Shown here: in pieces, positions 25,950 through 59,645 of the stretch
Numbering within the stretch: position 1 is the first letter of the stretch
Layout of the letters: every line of letters begins with the position of its first letter
Made by a program: the position numbers and the translations under genes
Source: a virus
Taxonomy: Duplodnaviria; Caudoviricetes
DNA: 64,000 nucleotides
Strand: one strand, 5' to 3'
Virus record (IMG/VR): IMGVR_UViG_3300033463_006479
Span: 96,001 to 160,000 of that record
Notes under the pieces: model-generated
What the model saw: only the letters and a program-made list of their open reading frames with translations
Told to the model about the DNA's origin: nothing
Databases searched by the model: none

Positions 25950-27800
25950 AGGACTATAAGCTCCGAAGAACTAAACATAGTCAAAAGTGGTCACACCACT
26001 TTCACTACGTTCACCATCTGATTTGTTCATCAGACTTCTTCGGAACGACAACAGCACATCTTTAACTTTCTCACGTTTGAGTTTTCTCGGTTCGTATGCG
26101 CCGTTGCCAAGTCGTTTTAAGAGCGAATCACGCAACACGGTTACGGTCACTCTGTTCTTTATATTGACAGATGCGTTGTGGTCTGCATTGTCCTTATGCC
26201 CGCATTCAACGCATTCAAAGGTCTCTTGGCTCGGTCTGTTTTCATCTGCGATGCAACCACAAATCGGACACATCTTTGAGGTGTAACTCGCCTGCACTGT
26301 TGACAATGCGATACCATATTTCCTTGCAATGTGTTCAACCTCATCTTTTAGACTGCTCAATCCGAGGAACTTGACCTTTCTATTGTAGTTTATATCCTCG
26401 TTGTCTTTATCCTTGATGTAACACCTTCCAAAACCATTGTCAAGGTCTTCCATAACGATGTGGTCAACACCATCCAACATCAACGACTTGCACATCTTTG
26501 AAATGAGTTCTTGTTCGGATTTCTGCATCTTCATCTTGAGTGTGTCAAGTTTCTGCTGTTTGCGCTTGCCGATGGTGTAGTTCTTGTCTTTCTTCAGTTC
26601 GTCCACTTTCAATGACAGTTTGCAGAAGTCATTGACTAACTTACGGTTGTAGTCATAGGCAGTTTCGTTTGACAGACTGAAGAGATTGTGCTTGCAGTTC
26701 ACGTCAATTCCTACCACGTTGTCTCCTGCTTCTGGTATGTATCTCTGACCATCCTTGCACAAGTTGATATTGACTTGATGGTATTTTTCGTTGAATGTAA
26801 GCACATATTCGTAGTCGGGATTGGATTTGCGGTAGTCATTCATACTTCCGTGCCAATCCTTGTTGAACCTCACTGGGATGTCAAACGACTTTCTTTCGAT
26901 TCCAGACAGACTGACAAAGGAGTTGATTACCGAACCAAACTTCTTGTTGTAGTCAATGATTCTCGTCTTCCTGCACCTGCCTCCGAATGACAATGACTTG
27001 AACTCAATCGGATGCTCGGAATAACAATCGATGATTCTGTTTCGTTTCCGCAAGGCAAGTTCCATAAGTCTGTCAAAACCGAACTTGTTACAGCAACGTA
27101 TGATGTTGTTGTAGAAGTCTCGCTTCTTGTCATCGCAGGTCTCCAACTGCTTGATGATATATTCCAATGTGTTATCGTTTCCGTATCTTGCAAGATAAGT
27201 CAGACAGATTGACAATGGTGTTTTGCTATTCTCCGTTACGACATTCTTCAAGTCGCCTTTCTTGTTCTTCTTGGTGTCACGCTTGTAGAACTCAAATCCG
27301 ACAAATCTTATAACTTCAAAGTCAAGGTGTTTTCGGATTGCTTCAAACTTGTTCTGGTAGCAGTTGAACACTTGTGTATATAGTTGCATATCAAACGAAC
27401 TCGGAATGGCATCCTTGTATCTCGCCCTCATCCCCTTCAAGAAGTCGAATTTTGAATATTCAAGGTACTTTTCAAGATTGGAGTTCACATATTCGGAAAC
27501 AAGGTTCTTATGGTCACGCAGCATAACAGCAAACGAATGTAAATCGTCATACTTCTGACGTGTTAAGTCGTTTGACTTGAATGTTTTTGTGTATTTGCTG
27601 TCTATGACCATATTACAATAAAAAAGAGGCATTAAACTTGCGGCAGTAATGCGAGGAGTGCCATCAAGGATAAAACCTCTGTATATCTTTATTGTTATTT
27701 TGAAACGACTCCTCGCTTTCGTTTCATTATATAAATAGTCTTAAACTATAATATATTTATACGAGTTACTTTTGAACATTTTTGACTACTTTTGAATAGG
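25950..27800 (-). mobile_element. non-autonomous tnpB element (IS607/IS200-605-like)
   Basis: CCT at both junctions, three ~10-bp TCAAAA repeats at the left end, hairpin GACTATG..TTCG..TATAGTC at the right end, no tnpA. Confidence 0.55.
25971..27632 (-). CDS. tnpB: large TnpB/Cas12f-like RNA-guided nuclease
   Basis: RuvC-I VGIDVN, RuvC-II IVMEDL, CPICG/CVECG Zn finger, RuvC-III ADHNASVNI. Confidence 0.85.
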   Translation of the reverse strand: MPLFYCNMVIDSKYTKTFKSNDLTRQKYDDLHSFAVMLRDHKNLVSEYVNSNLEKYLEYSKFDFLKGMRARYKDAIPSSFDMQLYTQVFNCYQNKFEAIRKHLDFEVIRFVGFEFYKRDTKKNKKGDLKNVVTENSKTPLSICLTYLARYGNDNTLEYIIKQLETCDDKKRDFYNNIIRCCNKFGFDRLMELALRKRNRIIDCYSEHPIEFKSLSFGGRCRKTRIIDYNKKFGSVINSFVSLSGIERKSFDIPVRFNKDWHGSMNDYRKSNPDYEYVLTFNEKYHQVNINLCKDGQRYIPEAGDNVVGIDVNCKHNLFSLSNETAYDYNRKLVNDFCKLSLKVDELKKDKNYTIGKRKQQKLDTLKMKMQKSEQELISKMCKSLMLDGVDHIVMEDLDNGFGRCYIKDKDNEDINYNRKVKFLGLSSLKDEVEHIARKYGIALSTVQASYTSKMCPICGCIADENRPSQETFECVECGHKDNADHNASVNIKNRVTVTVLRDSLLKRLGNGAYEPRKLKREKVKDVLLSFRRSLMNKSDGERSESGVTTFDYV

Positions 27801-27898
27801 TTTATCAACTTCTGTTGCTATCCCAAAGCGTCCGACTTCACGGAAGGAATCCTCACGTGCTGAACTCCTATAATATCATTAAAAATATGAAAAACTTG

Positions 27899-32781: not shown

Positions 32782-32811
32782 ATATGTTATGTTTTTGTTT
32801 TCTGATATGTG

Positions 32812-32896
32812 TGGCTTGGGCGGGACTCGAACCCGCACGCCCGCAATGGGCAACAGATTTTAAGTCTGTCGTGTCTACCAATTCCACCACCAAGCC
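32812..32896 (-). tRNA. tRNA-Leu(UAA)
   Basis: Loop CTTAAAA. Confidence 0.9.
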
Positions 32897-34303: not shown

Positions 34304-34807
34304 CTATTTGCTGGCGATTTCTTTTACTGCATTTGCGATAACACCATTGTTCGCATTAGGATATTTAACCTTCACTCTTGCGATAATATCTTTGGTATAT
34401 CGTTGCAGTTGTTTAGTGTCAAACGTTTCACCATTGTTGTTTTTTTCAGAAACAAGTATATCAACTTGCTTTTCGGTTTCATTGCGAACTTCCTCAACGC
34501 TCGGCTCTTTCGGCAAGAGTTTTTCAAGTTCAGAAGCCTCAAATTCGTTCACCTTTCTGTTTTCAACGGCTATTTTGTTGTCATCACCAGCCTTGGCAAA
34601 CTCCTGCGCAGCCGTGCGGCAACGTTTCAGCATAGAACGGAGAATTTCAGTTTCCTTTTCGTCATTAGGAAGTTTTGTTCCGTTATGCACGGCGTTCACC
34701 ATTTCGGTCTTGACACCTTTCCAGAAATTCGTTTTTAATTTCACGGCGCAGTCTTTTTCTTCAAACATAGCGTCCGCAATGTGTTTGTCAAGCGTTTCAA
34801 AAATCAT
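34304..34807 (-). CDS. GatB/YqeY domain protein
   Basis: LDKHIADAM.EKD ... EILRSMLKR ... E...LEKLLPKEPS.EEV ... A..G.IA..VK. Confidence 0.75.
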   Translation of the reverse strand: MIFETLDKHIADAMFEEKDCAVKLKTNFWKGVKTEMVNAVHNGTKLPNDEKETEILRSMLKRCRTAAQEFAKAGDDNKIAVENRKVNEFEASELEKLLPKEPSVEEVRNETEKQVDILVSEKNNNGETFDTKQLQRYTKDIIARVKVKYPNANNGVIANAVKEIASK

Positions 34808-36647: not shown

Positions 36648-37058
36648 TTATTTCTTTTTCCAATGTGATTTAATCCCTCCGCATTTTCTACTGCAACAAG
36701 GATTTGGGTGCGTTGATAAATTACGTTTATCAAAAATGAATTTCTCACCACAAACTGGACAAACACATTCAATAAAAGTTTTTGATTGTTTCTTTTTTGA
36801 ATTATTTTGTCTTTTTGATATAACTTGTAAGTTCTCTATCCTATCATCCATTCTATCACCATTTATGTGGTCAACTTCATCATCATTTGCCACATCACAA
36901 CTATAATATGAAGTATAAAGATATTTTGCATAAGACATTGAATGTTTTTCGCCATTTGCATATTTCATAGTTGCAACTCTTCTGGGTTCTTTGTTTATAT
37001 TTACATAAACACTGGTTACACCTTTATTTTTATAGTATTCACTAACATCAATTTTCAT
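36648..37058 (-). CDS. HNH homing endonuclease
   Basis: VDHINGDRMDDRIENLQ..N; C-terminal CPVCG..CCSRKC. Confidence 0.85.
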   Translation of the reverse strand: MKIDVSEYYKNKGVTSVYVNINKEPRRVATMKYANGEKHSMSYAKYLYTSYYSCDVANDDEVDHINGDRMDDRIENLQVISKRQNNSKKKQSKTFIECVCPVCGEKFIFDKRNLSTHPNPCCSRKCGGIKSHWKKK

Positions 37059-37666: not shown

Positions 37667-37873
37667 AGAAATACAAGGTTTATGTTCTGACCAGCGTCTT
37701 CACCGCCAAGCCAATTTCATCTGTTTACGTCCTCGCAAACCTTGCAAAACAAAGGAGTGTGGCGCAGTTCACCATCAGCCACATTTAGGGCTTTTTTCTT
37801 ATGGATAGAATTAAAGCGTAAAAACCTTTCCATATACCGAGCAGAAGTGAAGATTCTGGCGGGTAATGAAATG

Positions 37874-37946
37874 TCGTCCCAACGGGATTCGAACCCGTGA
37901 CTCCACCGTGAAAGGGTGGCGACTTAAACCACTTGTCGATAGGACG
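37874..37946 (-). tRNA. tRNA-Glu(UUC)
   Basis: Loop CTTTCAC. Confidence 0.9.
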
Positions 37947-37964
37947 GTGCGTATATGCCATTCC

Positions 37965-39325
37965 ATTCGGACACTATCGCATTATAGCAAACGTGCGGTA
38001 ATGTAGAACGTGGATGCGATTGTGTCGCCGCAGCAGTTTTTACATTTTCTTATTGCTTCTCGCTGAACTGTGGCCAATCCAAACCAAACGGCATATAAGG
38101 AAACCGCAGGTAAGTATAGTTGTCTTGCATCGGCGGGCGGTTTCGTATGACCGACACAAATGTCTCTTGGACGTTATGTTCGCCGCACATTGCGGCATTG
38201 CTTGACTGACGGGCGGTTTGACACCTACCGTTCCGACAGCTGCAACCAGTATATATCATTTCAACTGGATTTAGAAAACTATGATTTACAAAGGTTTAAA
38301 GACTTCCTTAACCTACCACACTATGTTACCATAGCCAAATAATATCACCAAAACAGTCTGAAACAAATCAGTTTTCATACATTTGTTACACACTTTGTAT
38401 CAGGTGTGCAGCCGTGACAGCTCTGTTTTATTATCTGTTGTGGTCTGGAGCACATTATAGCCATATCGGAAATTCTGCGCAGTTATAATAACATTTTAAA
38501 TTTAATGAATTGTTGAGGGTCATACCCGCTCTACCGTATAGAATAATCAAGTAAATAGACCATTCTTTCTTGTTTCATCCTGCCACTACTTTTTAAGTCT
38601 GTTGTCAGACAGTCATCCATAGTTGGGCAGTCCGCAAGCGTAAATTTGGTGTTACGGACACCTATTATTAAAAATTCCGACTGTAGGCTCGTCCTCTATG
38701 CTCTCTACACATTTATGATAATGTTTTTCAATCAAAGAATTGCCATCATCTGATTGAAAACAAGGCAGCAAAAGGGGATTCTACGCAGGCAATTTATTCT
38801 CATAGCCCGATTCTCTTTTGCCGCACATTATCATTTTAGCACGGTATTGTCCCCGCACGTTATTGGTTAGTGCTGCCGCAGACATCACAAACAAATTCGC
38901 TTATGACGGCTGCTGGCGGTATGATGATAAAATGTGTACGGTGTTGCGATTTGGCCATAAGCCAGAACGGAACTGCACAACACGTTATCGTCAATGGGGA
39001 TGTCCACCGTTTTAGGGACGTTCTACTACGGGTTGTTCACGCCGTAGCACTCCAAATATAAATTCAAAGCGGGTTGGTGAGCATCTTGCAGAAATTCTGG
39101 AAGATGCCGCACACTCCCGTCTGATACGTTTCGTATGGAGAAACGGGTTTCTCCTTCTTGTTTCCACCTGCCGACACTTCTTGGATTCATTTCTGAACGC
39201 AATATGTAATCTGGCAGTCCGCAAGCGTTACTTCGGCGGTACGTCCGCCTACCATCCGATTGTCGCATCTGTTTTGGCAACGCCTCCACAGAGCATCGGA
39301 ATTTCCTTATAGTGCCTTTCGCCAA
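37965..39325 (-). ncRNA. large end-paired structured ncRNA (ROOL-like), intron-split
   Basis: 5' GGCACUAU (39316-39309) pairs with 3' AUAGUGUC (37977-37970); ~640 nt after intron removal; GUUGCAGCUG, GUGUCGGU and CCUUAUAUGC motifs recalled from ROOL RNAs; heads the tRNA array. Confidence 0.6.
38346..39065 (-). ncRNA. group I intron, no ORF
   Basis: P1 CGCUUU/GGAGUG with U-G; P3 CGUCC/GGACG; P4 ACGGU/ACCGU (P AAAACGGUGGA, Q CAAUACCGUGCUAAA); P7 GAGCA/UGCUC (R GUAGAGAGCAUAGA, S AUAAUGUGCUCC); ACCA/UGGU before the candidate omega-G. Confidence 0.8.
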
Positions 39326-39329
39326 TATG

Positions 39330-39842
39330 TCAAAGAACTTTGTTCTTATTCCAATATAATAAAAAATTCGAGAAATCGTGAAATGTTTTTGTCAAATGAC
39401 CGCCTCTCGGTTTTCATCATATTTTCAAAGAACGCTGCGTATTTAATATAATAAAAATTTTCGGAATATGCAAAATGTTTTTGCAAAAACTTCAGTTTTC
39501 ATCATATCAAAGAGCCGCATTTTAGTTTCGCAGTTGTTATCAAAAACAACGCTGCAAAAATACAACTTTTTTTAATGCTGTCAACAATTTCGTAAAAAAG
39601 TTTTCAACAAAGTTATCAACAGCCGTTGTGTTTCATATCTTCAAAGAACGTTACTCAATCAATATAATAAAAATTTTGAAAAATGGAGAAAACATTGCAA
39701 CATTTTTCGTTTATCATATCAAAGAGCGTTTTGCCGTTTTTTAGTGTCGGCGCATCACTGTCATAATGACTTTGCAAAGATACAACCTTTTCTAATAGTG
39801 TCAATACATTTTTCAATAAACTTATCAACAGAGTTATCAACA
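39330..39842 (-). promoter_or_regulatory. stack of five promoter plus boxA-like units
   Basis: Early promoters at 39555 and 39775, TATTATATT-type at 39353, 39445 and 39661; each followed by G[CT]TCTTTGA at 39330, 39425, 39507, 39641, 39719. Confidence 0.75.
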
Positions 39843-40051
39843 ATCTTATTTAATTCAACATTCACAATATCAGCAATTTCAATTATCAAAACAAACAGCA
39901 AAAAAATTGGCGGCATATTTTTGATATACCGCCAACCGAATATTTTTTGTACGATATATCGCATCACGAACCATATTCGTCATTATAGTTCGCCCAAAAG
40001 AGTTGTGATTTACTTGGTCGGATATCGTATAGCTTTGTCATAGTTACTATC

Positions 40052-40147
40052 GTTTTTTCTTTTTTTATTTATACGAGCGATTTTTCGCTTTTTTCTGTTT
40101 TTATTTATACGAGCGATTTTTCGCTTTTTTCTGTTTTTATTTATACG
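40052..40147 (-). repeat. 36-bp tandem repeat, each unit with a TATAAATA late promoter
   Basis: ttttttctgtttttatttatacgagcgatttttcgc x~2.6; a further partial copy at ~40365-40390. Confidence 0.85.
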
Positions 40148-40175
40148 GATTGATGTCGGTTTATTGATATTCTAA

Positions 40176-53677: not shown

Positions 53678-53911
53678 ATGAGTACGATACTTGCACTTGA
53701 AGAATTTATAGTGGAAAACGACAATGAACTTTTTTTGGAAGTTCTCGAACACTTCAAAAAACAATATCCGAGAAGAAGGATTGAAGTCAAAAGATACGGC
53801 TATGGAAACATAGTGAGCATTGACGGTGAGGACAAATTCAATACGAGCGGTTACAACCTGCTCTATAATATTAAACGTCTGTGCGATTGCCTTGAAGATG
53901 AATTGATTTAA
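53678..53911 (+). CDS. small late protein with CTS-like N-terminus
   Basis: MSTILALEEFIVE. Confidence 0.65.
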   Translation: MSTILALEEFIVENDNELFLEVLEHFKKQYPRRRIEVKRYGYGNIVSIDGEDKFNTSGYNLLYNIKRLCDCLEDELI

Positions 53912-58320: not shown

Positions 58321-59645
58321 CGAAATTATCCCTTTTATTCTTGTATTATTTATAAGACTTCAAGTTCAATAGTCGCTTCGTTGCTGTCCGATTGTTCACC
58401 AGTTTTATTGGGTCTTGCAAACGGTTGGTACACAGCTCCACGACCGTACTCGGCATTCCTTGCCGAGATATGTCTCTGCCATTCGTCTGGTTCATATTGT
58501 TCGTTGTTCTTCGCCGCATTGATGTCTCTGTCGTGATGAGCACCACAGTTCGGACAAGTCCAATATCTTACTGCCAGATTTTTGACTTTCTTGTTTATAT
58601 AACCGCACTCGCTGCACATCTGGCTTGACGGATAATATCTGTCAACTTTCATCATAGTCTTGCCGTTCCAAGCACATTTGTATTCAAGTGTCTGAACGAA
58701 CTGATACCAGTTGCATTCGGATATGGATTCAGCAAGTTTGTGATTTTTCATCATACCTTTTACATTCAAATCCTCAACTTTTATCAAGTCATAAGTTTTG
58801 ACCAGTTCTGCGGTTATCTTATGTATGTAGTCAGTTTTGATGTCTGTGATTTTCTGGTAGATTCGGTTGCATTTCAATACTTGGTTTTCATATCTCTTGC
58901 TTCCATAGACCTTCCTTGCCAGACATCTCTGATATTTTTTCAGTTTTCTTTTGTAATATCTGATTATGCTTCGTTTGCTTGCATATTTGAATCCCTTGCT
59001 TGTGATTATAAGTTCCTTTATTCCGAGGTCAAGACCTACACGTTCATAAGTTTTGTTTCTTGGTGTGTAGTCCTGCTTGACCGTTATCGCTATGTAGTAT
59101 CTGCCAGCCTTGTTTTTTGATATTGTGGCAAAGCAGATTTTACCTACAATTCCACGCTCCATAACTATGTCTATTCCGCTTTTGAGCTTCGGAATGTATA
59201 GTTTGTTATCCTTGATATGAAATGTGTTAGGCTGTGCAATCTTGAACGACTGCTTGTCTCTTCTGTTCTTGAACTTCGGATAGGAGCTTCTGTGCTTGTA
59301 GAAATTGTCATACGCAGTATGCATATTCTTCAAACTGCATTGCAAAGACTGCAAAGGAACAATGTTCAAGAACTCAAATCCTTCAAACTTGCGGATTTCT
59401 GTTAATTTACCAGACTGCACATTGTATGAATCACTTGTCTTTGCTTCATCATACTGTTTTTTTTTCTCGTTTAGAAAATGGTTGTACACAAACCTGCAAC
59501 ATCCGAACACATTGGCAAGATAAACTTGCTGCTCCTTGTTCGGATACAACCTAAACTTGTACGTGTACATTCTCTCCATCTGATTAAAACACTATACCAT
59601 ATTTATATTACTCACATTTTTACAAGACTGAAATGGATAATTCCA
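58321..59645 (-). mobile_element. tnpB cassette bounded by the same TIR family as 54451-54922
   Basis: cgaaattatcccttttattcttgta and ttacaagactgaaatggataattcc, 2 mismatches each to the perfect TIR. Confidence 0.75.
58350..59579 (-). CDS. tnpB: TnpB (IS605 OrfB-type) RNA-guided nuclease
   Basis: YKFRLYP HTH, VGLDLGI, VEDLNV, CSECG/CPNCG, DRDINAAKN. Confidence 0.95.
   Translation of the reverse strand: MERMYTYKFRLYPNKEQQVYLANVFGCCRFVYNHFLNEKKKQYDEAKTSDSYNVQSGKLTEIRKFEGFEFLNIVPLQSLQCSLKNMHTAYDNFYKHRSSYPKFKNRRDKQSFKIAQPNTFHIKDNKLYIPKLKSGIDIVMERGIVGKICFATISKNKAGRYYIAITVKQDYTPRNKTYERVGLDLGIKELIITSKGFKYASKRSIIRYYKRKLKKYQRCLARKVYGSKRYENQVLKCNRIYQKITDIKTDYIHKITAELVKTYDLIKVEDLNVKGMMKNHKLAESISECNWYQFVQTLEYKCAWNGKTMMKVDRYYPSSQMCSECGYINKKVKNLAVRYWTCPNCGAHHDRDINAAKNNEQYEPDEWQRHISARNAEYGRGAVYQPFARPNKTGEQSDSNEATIELEVL

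Follow-up and report, generated by a model that had tools for sequence, protein, structure and literature searches.

Group I introns and TnpB-linked insertion sequences are known to occur together in IStrons, in which a group I intron is fused to an IS605 or IS607 element (PMC4227781; 10.1101/2023.11.20.567912). The intron of an IStron is of type IA2 with P7.1/7.2; the IS is placed downstream of P9.2, its right end serving as the 3' splice site, and tnpB is usually present (PMC4227781). For TnpB of the IS607 family, a TGGG TAM and a scaffold end of ...CGG have been shown experimentally (preprint 10.1101/2023.11.20.567912). ORF-less, PATE-like remnants of the IS200/IS605 family keep their omega RNA and rely on a nuclease supplied in trans (PMC10055086). 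The classical group I intron of tRNA-Leu(UAA), finally, occupies the position CUU/...G/AAAA (10.1101/2020.01.27.920355).

Here, we describe a phage locus in which features of these systems come together. The window, that is, the whole stretch of 64,000 nucleotides that was analyzed, comprises bases 96001-160000 of a 192-kb viral contig (~70% complete) and carries 30 tRNA genes on the minus strand, from 37946 down to 21925. They are preceded by a gene-free stretch (39325-37965), for which our best explanation is a group I intron of the tRNA-Leu(UAA) family, stranded in the leader of the tRNA operon and accompanied by two gutted TnpB insertions of the IS607 type. We hold this explanation to be probable as a whole, including its premise that 39325-37965 is the transcribed leader of the phage tRNA operon with the intron at its core.

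A gene-free leader upstream of a phage tRNA array

The features of the locus are collected in Table 1. Between the promoter stack and the first tRNA, the longest reading frames reach at most 99 amino acids, have 0 Pfam matches and are not kept in the relative L005, in line with a preliminary description of this DNA that had seen no credible ORF there. The relative is part of a complete 413-kb viral contig, found via the 3' half of tRNA-Glu. It is syntenic with the window, with the same promoter-to-tRNA-Glu layout, promoter units and tRNA order at ~70 to 80% identity, and it is devoid of both omega-RNA modules described below. The promoter stack would give rise to a single long precursor RNA, from which RNase P would release the tRNAs after excision of the intron.

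Each repeated promoter unit is followed by a boxA-like motif (GTTCTTTGA), and 36-nt tandem repeats with terminator-like hairpins are located at 40045-40166, after the upstream gene and before the promoter units. Among the tRNA genes there are an HNH endonuclease ORF (36648-37058, minus strand) and a YqeY-like ORF (34304-34807, minus strand).

Full-length sequences with this version of the intron are two only, those of the window and L005. Searches with several core 15- to 19-mers against viral, metagenome and genome collections returned L005, the short L150 and chance matches only. L150 is a 1.2-kb metagenome contig that shares the insert in P8 of the intron and the TGGG plus target, representing an empty omega-2 site; as a whole (reverse strand), it has other surroundings, with a duplicated upstream unit and Bacteroidota-type promoter boxes. 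The 282-aa upstream protein had 0 relatives in viral contigs, and the contigs with homologues of the array's YqeY-like gene were non-syntenic, with this region absent.

Table 1. Positions of the features of the tRNA-operon leader in the window and the evidence on which they are based
Feature	Position	Strand	Evidence or remark
Repeated promoter units, clustered	39330-39850		Upstream of tRNA genes; strongest promoter cluster
5' flank ("exon 1"), putative tRNA-operon leader ending CUU/	39067..39322	-	P1 pairing kept; family 5' exons end CUU/
omega-1, ORF-less TnpB omega-RNA scaffold, older/more diverged	39119..39258	-	R1 115 bits, E 4e-25; end ACGA
Group I intron (by fold and homology)	38312..39066	-	Fold, covariation with L005, family HMMs
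P1	39071-39066/39053-39048	-	U.G wobble at 5' splice site
P2	39047-39042/39031-39026	-	
P3	39020-39016/38694-38690	-	Covaries
P4	39010-39005/38846-38841	-	
P5	39000-38996/38854-38850	-	
P6	38834-38826/38723-38715	-	
P7	38703-38697/38454-38448	-	7 bp
P8	38689-38686 + 38681-38675/38471-38465 + 38462-38459	-	
omega-2, ORF-less TnpB omega-RNA scaffold in P8 domain	38534..38671	-	R1 157 bits, E 2e-35; ends ACGG (38537-38534)
Guide-equivalent flank of omega-2, part of conserved P8 insert	38512..38533	-	First 18 nt = L005:2503-2520
P9 GNRA hairpin	38334-38321	-	Identical in window and L005
Terminal G	G38312	-	Putative; position from homology with the 9-nt tail that family members keep behind P9
3' flank ("exon 2"), conserved structured RNA	37947..38311	-	RNAalifold covariation; z = -2.0
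Closed terminal domain of 3' flank	38097-37952	-	Ends 5 nt before tRNA-Glu
tRNA-Glu(UUC)	37873..37946	-	First of the 30 minus-strand tRNA genes

Fold and splice sites of the group I intron

All core helices from P1 to P9 are present, with P3 to P8 in canonical order and a P3/P7 pseudoknot, and minimum free energy folding by itself recovers P2, P3, P4, P5 and P6. Between the window and L005, 33 of 35 core pairs (P1, P3, P4, P7 and P8) are kept. Five pairs, located in P3 and P8, changed on both sides and four show one-sided compatible changes, compared with 0 double changes in slid controls with partners shifted by 1 to 4 nt, a comparison that is flattered by the helices having been derived from the same sequences. 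In P1, L005 carries three substitutions, none of which breaks the pairing with the guide sequence at 39053-39048, and the U.G wobble is retained. Both broken core pairs are A.C mismatches in L005's P7, and folding of the L005 copy is no better than that of shuffles (z = -1.3); this copy may be dead. The window's P7, in contrast, is fully paired, and two of its pairs differ from the family consensus in a compensatory manner. At the P4-P6 junction, a match to a 20-mer of T4 td with two mismatches lies at homologous places in both genomes (chance expectation, 0.01); searched with this 20-mer, these two genomes (G000 and G001) and two Lak phages yielded nothing further.

Based on this fold and on the family profiles described below, 39066-38312 is a real group I intron, as the preliminary description had claimed. 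Of the helices that it had named, P3 is real and covarying, both P4 strands exist, and its P7 strands sit within the longer P7 defined here. Its 5' splice site was essentially right, 1 nt away from the site after U39067, and its 3' splice site at 38346 was displaced by ~35 nt from the terminal G that family homology indicates. No P10 pairing of note was found in the window. A 3' splice site at G38316, taken from a P10-like pairing, was replaced by G38312 on family homology; an early candidate for P7, pairing the 38707 region with the 38471 region, was rejected as its 3' strand belongs to P8 (two compensatory pairs); and for an IA2-type order, which would place P3' downstream of the conserved hairpin, the complementary strand is absent.

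The Rfam group I models, to which the preliminary description had looked for confirmation, did not recover the intron: Intron_gpI (RF00028) at E <= 10 had no match at the window locus (37800-39700) or in L005. Given that the same procedure found T4 td (40 bits) and nrdB (36 bits), the window intron is off-consensus and not merely missed through its insertion. Its P7 departs from the family consensus by the two compensatory pairs, so that Rfam's conserved R and S elements go unrecognised. In the window phage, where P7 is intact, the ribozyme would fold and then probably excise itself with guanosine, joining 39067 to 38311. We infer that the window copy still splices, as its core is fully paired, unlike L005's P7.

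The intron belongs to a tRNA-Leu(UAA) family of large phages

The 16-mer of the P9 hairpin occurs at 113 loci in viral contigs, mostly those of large rumen or gut phages. The 9-nt tail that follows P9 in the window is the same in ~102 of 117 P9 matches, and ~87 of the 117 have a T arm and acceptor strand (often with CCA) 30 to 60 nt downstream. Blocks of J6/7-P7-P3'-P8-P7', as in the window, precede most of them, and many members have an exact complement of the acceptor strand 300 to 570 nt upstream, starting a tRNA 5' half that ends in CUU/. A second P9-like match in the window (53798-53813) lies within a coding frame and was discarded as chance. When the member L330 was spliced in silico, ARAGORN called tRNA-Leu(taa), and Rfam Intron_gpI scores 44 bits on it (E = 4e-8).

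Profile HMMs built from other members, with the window and L005 left out, were then searched with nhmmer. They match the window at 39062-38998 with an E value of 3e-9 and at three collinear 3' pieces with E values of 0.002, 0.009 and 0.1; at matching places in L005, the E values are 2e-8 and 4e-8. The splice context of the family is CUU/...G/AAAA, with the intron between U34 and A35 in the anticodon loop of tRNA-Leu(UAA). By this homology, the family of the window intron is the classical tRNA-Leu(UAA) anticodon-loop intron, in place of the previously undescribed type of intron host that had been suggested.

The tRNA 3' exon is absent after ~8% of family-type intron 3' ends. Such ends were seen in L313, L335, L311, L321, L332, L339/L343 and L342, and in two of them, L313 and L335, the intron leads into a ribosome-binding site and an ATG instead of a tRNA. 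In L257-L368 (e.g., L330:7250-7700), the family apparently splits other tRNA genes besides tRNA-Leu(UAA). Since ARAGORN does not call intron-split tRNA genes, the tRNA counts of such phages are underestimates.

The flanks have lost the tRNA and retain a structured RNA

Of the tRNA context, the window keeps only the 5' flank ending in CUU/; its 3' flank does not begin with AAAA. In L005, the 3' flank begins with an AAAAUC-like string, and most of this flank is kept. A tRNA 5' half was not detectable in the window's 5' flank. Ligation of the flanks at three candidate junctions each in the window and L005 gave no tRNA by ARAGORN, with the L330 positive control working, and the idea of an intact tRNA hidden in the flanks was dropped. 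The exon part of the family HMM matches only intact tRNA-Leu genes further along the array, one of which is an intron-less tRNA-Leu(taa) at 32811-32896. Together, these results show that the intron is stranded. We propose that the tRNA exons eroded in the window phage and L005, which would have left the intron between a non-coding leader and a structured 3' RNA. The start of the leader (39322-39308, minus strand), which is conserved in L005, shows a weak resemblance to the D arm in the tRNA-Leu 5' exon of the family, perhaps a final remnant of the tRNA that was lost.

The two flanks differ in their conservation. Conservation between the window and L005 is poor in the 5' flank beyond its first 35 nt, whereas the 3' flank is conserved in blocks, with 21 of 92 RNAalifold pairs changed on both sides and three compensatory changes in the 12-bp helix that closes its terminal domain. 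The 3' flank has no Rfam match, and a model of the terminal domain (R2) matches only G000 and G001, i.e., these two genomes, and nothing in two Lak phages. The terminal domain has two invariant loops with 6 nt of mutual complementarity, so that a kissing-loop contact is possible.

The preliminary description had read the flanks differently, namely, as a giant end-paired RNA of ~640 nt, similar to ROOL or GOLLD, whose function would need removal of the intron. We regard this as highly improbable. Neither the window (37800-39700) nor L005 has a match to the ROOL, GOLLD, OLE or HEARO models at E <= 10, in either flank of the unspliced sequence, and Rfam at gathering thresholds returned tRNA only; the motifs and host type taken for ROOL-like are therefore not borne out, although in a related contig the ROOL model does recognise, with 98 bits, a ROOL 3' end (L330:1-168). 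This ROOL heads a tRNA array, as the giant RNA would, and the conserved and structured 3' flank also speaks for the proposal. So does an alternative pairing of the leader (39319-39302) with 38103-38087, but it is in competition with the helix that closes the terminal domain. The pairing of the extreme ends fares no better, given that its 3' partner strand lies in a covarying local helix and that L005 gains a mismatch. Further points against a giant RNA are the poor conservation of the 5' flank beyond its first 35 nt and the derivation of the flanks from a tRNA-Leu context. The same related contig contains a cow-rumen-3 RNA (72 bits) inside its tRNA array, at L330:7943-8066.

The compensatory changes in P3 and P8 postdate the exon loss, which falls in the common ancestor of the window phage and L005, so that some selection on the RNA fold appears to have persisted afterwards. 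With a basis of two sequences, this is no more than suggestive.

Two omega-RNA scaffolds left by TnpB elements

A repeat search revealed a ~130-nt module in two copies that lie 587 nt apart. Together, these scaffolds (omega-1 and omega-2) take up ~280 nt of the gene-free stretch and had been missed by the preliminary description. The omega-2 module shares 85% identity with a tnpB element for a 433-aa protein (C1:70592-71890), over the 3' end of that gene plus the right end, and two Lak megaphages have the same module at the end of full-length tnpB genes. In an alignment of five module copies, 11 of 26 pairs show compensatory change. The covariance model R1, built from these five copies, finds in this genome omega-2 (38671-38531), omega-1 and the tnpB-linked copy and no others; in three other genomes, 8 of 9 modules are found at the 3' end of a full tnpB. 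One module (L167; Lak-B1 185588-185725, 69 bits) has no TnpB match upstream and may be another orphan, or its gene may be hidden by the phage's altered code.

Upstream of the window modules, tblastn finds only TnpB residues 376 to 410 and, at omega-1, residues 375 to 389, and neither left-end similarity nor a tnpB gene is present in the gene-free stretch. Both window modules are gutted elements that retain the guide-RNA scaffold. TGGG borders the left end of three elements, and CGG terminates the scaffolds, which matches the published rules and identifies the elements as IS607 type. At the empty omega-2 site of L005, TGGG (L005:2499-2502) is followed by 18 nt identical to the window flank, and the same is seen in L150, from which it follows that omega-2 represents an insertion at a canonical TAM and target with subsequent deletion. 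Lost in this deletion were the TAM, the left end and the gene, along with 19 nt of the host's own sequence; the P8 helix was spared. Omega-1 does not conform to the TGGG/CGG rule, its end being ACGA and the corresponding site in L005 TCGG.

According to the course of events that we propose, IS607-type TnpB elements would have inserted twice, one insertion hitting the 5' flank and the other a TGGG site within the enlarged loop of P8; each element would then have lost its left end and nuclease gene, leaving an omega-RNA scaffold beside the original target. The scaffolds would be transcribed within the precursor, and the intact 433-aa TnpB, whose gene lies at another place in the genome and whose translation shows the RuvC motifs, could load them.

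Other tnpB-like genes were noted in the same genome. An ORF for a 553-aa TnpB/Cas12-like protein lies inside the tRNA array (25971-27632, minus strand), and its left end (27609-27830) is 84 to 86% identical to that of the 433-aa tnpB (C1:70592-71890); this common left end consists of a promoter and a structured 5' UTR and is flanked by TGGG. Further full-length tnpB genes, ~38% identical to the 433-aa one, are located at 58350-59579 (minus strand) in the window and at C1:12219-11104 and C1:63234-62119. The omega RNAs of these three genes are of another family, with no R1 match.

The orphan scaffolds might have been put to use. In such a scenario, selection would have kept the ribozyme and the two scaffolds after exon loss, the scaffolds would serve as trans guides for the phage's TnpB, with omega-2 directing it to the TGGG and target of co-infecting relatives that lack the omega modules (homing or marker exclusion), and/or splicing would build a functional leader RNA by joining the leader to the 3' RNA. 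If this were true, the entire head region of the tRNA operon would undergo gene conversion during co-infection, amounting to RNA-guided marker exclusion between phages. Several observations fit: both orphans begin at the same point of the scaffold (TnpB residue ~375) with covarying structure kept, their position is downstream of the strongest promoter cluster, TGGG with the identical 18-nt target is found in L005 and L150, the 433-aa TnpB is available in the genome, and there are precedents for ORF-less elements whose omega RNAs are served in trans (PMC10055086). However, the guide is simply the local flank, as for any insertion, with no sign of selection for targeting; omega-1, by its ACGA end and the TCGG of its L005 site, does not fit; and the conserved 20-nt block is perhaps maintained for the RNA's own fold. 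We therefore find use of the scaffolds as guides, and equally a selected role for splicing in building the leader, doubtful and give both little credence.

Decay without any use, in which intron, flanks and omega pieces are leftovers in a tolerant leader and no splicing takes place, is in our estimation unlikely, too. The loss of the tRNA exons, the presence of an intact intron-less tRNA-Leu(taa), the damage to L005's P7, the gutting of both TnpB elements and the ~8% of family matches without a tRNA 3' exon would all be expected from it. They contrast with the five double compensatory changes in P3 and P8 that arose after exon loss in the common ancestor, with the window's P7, fully paired and compensated relative to the family, with a deletion in omega-2 that spared the P8 helix, and with the helices kept in the 3' flank. 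A stranded tRNA-Leu(UAA)-family intron that probably remains active in the window phage, next to two gutted TnpB insertions, is the reading that we prefer.

Discussion

With these results, a supposed new class of intron host becomes a known one. The tRNA-Leu intron family to which the window intron belongs is common in large gut and rumen phages and is missed by standard tRNA finders and at Rfam thresholds. The stranded copy offers a natural case of a ribozyme structure evolving by compensatory change after its exons lost function, which raises the question of what selection acts on it. The TnpB relic in P8 shows IS607 and a group I intron coming together independently outside Firmicutes and Fusobacteria and bears on the origin of IStrons, and omega-2, together with the intact TGGG and target of the sister phage, constitutes a directly testable pair of guide and target.

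Compared with the described systems, the locus shares with ROOL and GOLLD RNAs the place where a large phage's tRNA array begins, as ROOL itself is found in a related contig, but neither flank nor the window region as a whole has a match to their models. The likeness to PATEs consists in scaffolds that are kept without a nuclease gene, with TnpB only in trans. PATEs, however, keep both ends and are mobilisable, whereas the pair in the window is without left ends and consists of deletion relics.

Like an IStron, the window combines a group I intron and the guide RNA of an IS607-type TnpB in one predicted transcript, and its TGGG target and ...CGG scaffold end fit the published IS607 rules. In contrast to IStrons, the remnant lies between the P8 strands, without tnpB or left end, and the intron exists without omega-2 in L005. 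The locus thus represents a secondary invasion of an intron by an IS607-type element and not a fused IStron.

The closest system remains the classical tRNA-Leu(UAA) intron, with which the family shares its splice-site context and the window a 5' flank ending in CUU with U.G in P1 as well as a putative terminal G after the GNRA hairpin of P9. The window intron differs in that the flanks are no longer a tRNA, P5, P6 and P8 are greatly enlarged, P7 is off consensus, so that Rfam misses the intron, and the host is the tRNA-operon leader of a large phage. The element is therefore of a known kind, by class a group I intron and by family a tRNA-Leu intron, and it is a variant through the loss of its host tRNA and the TnpB guide relic in P8.
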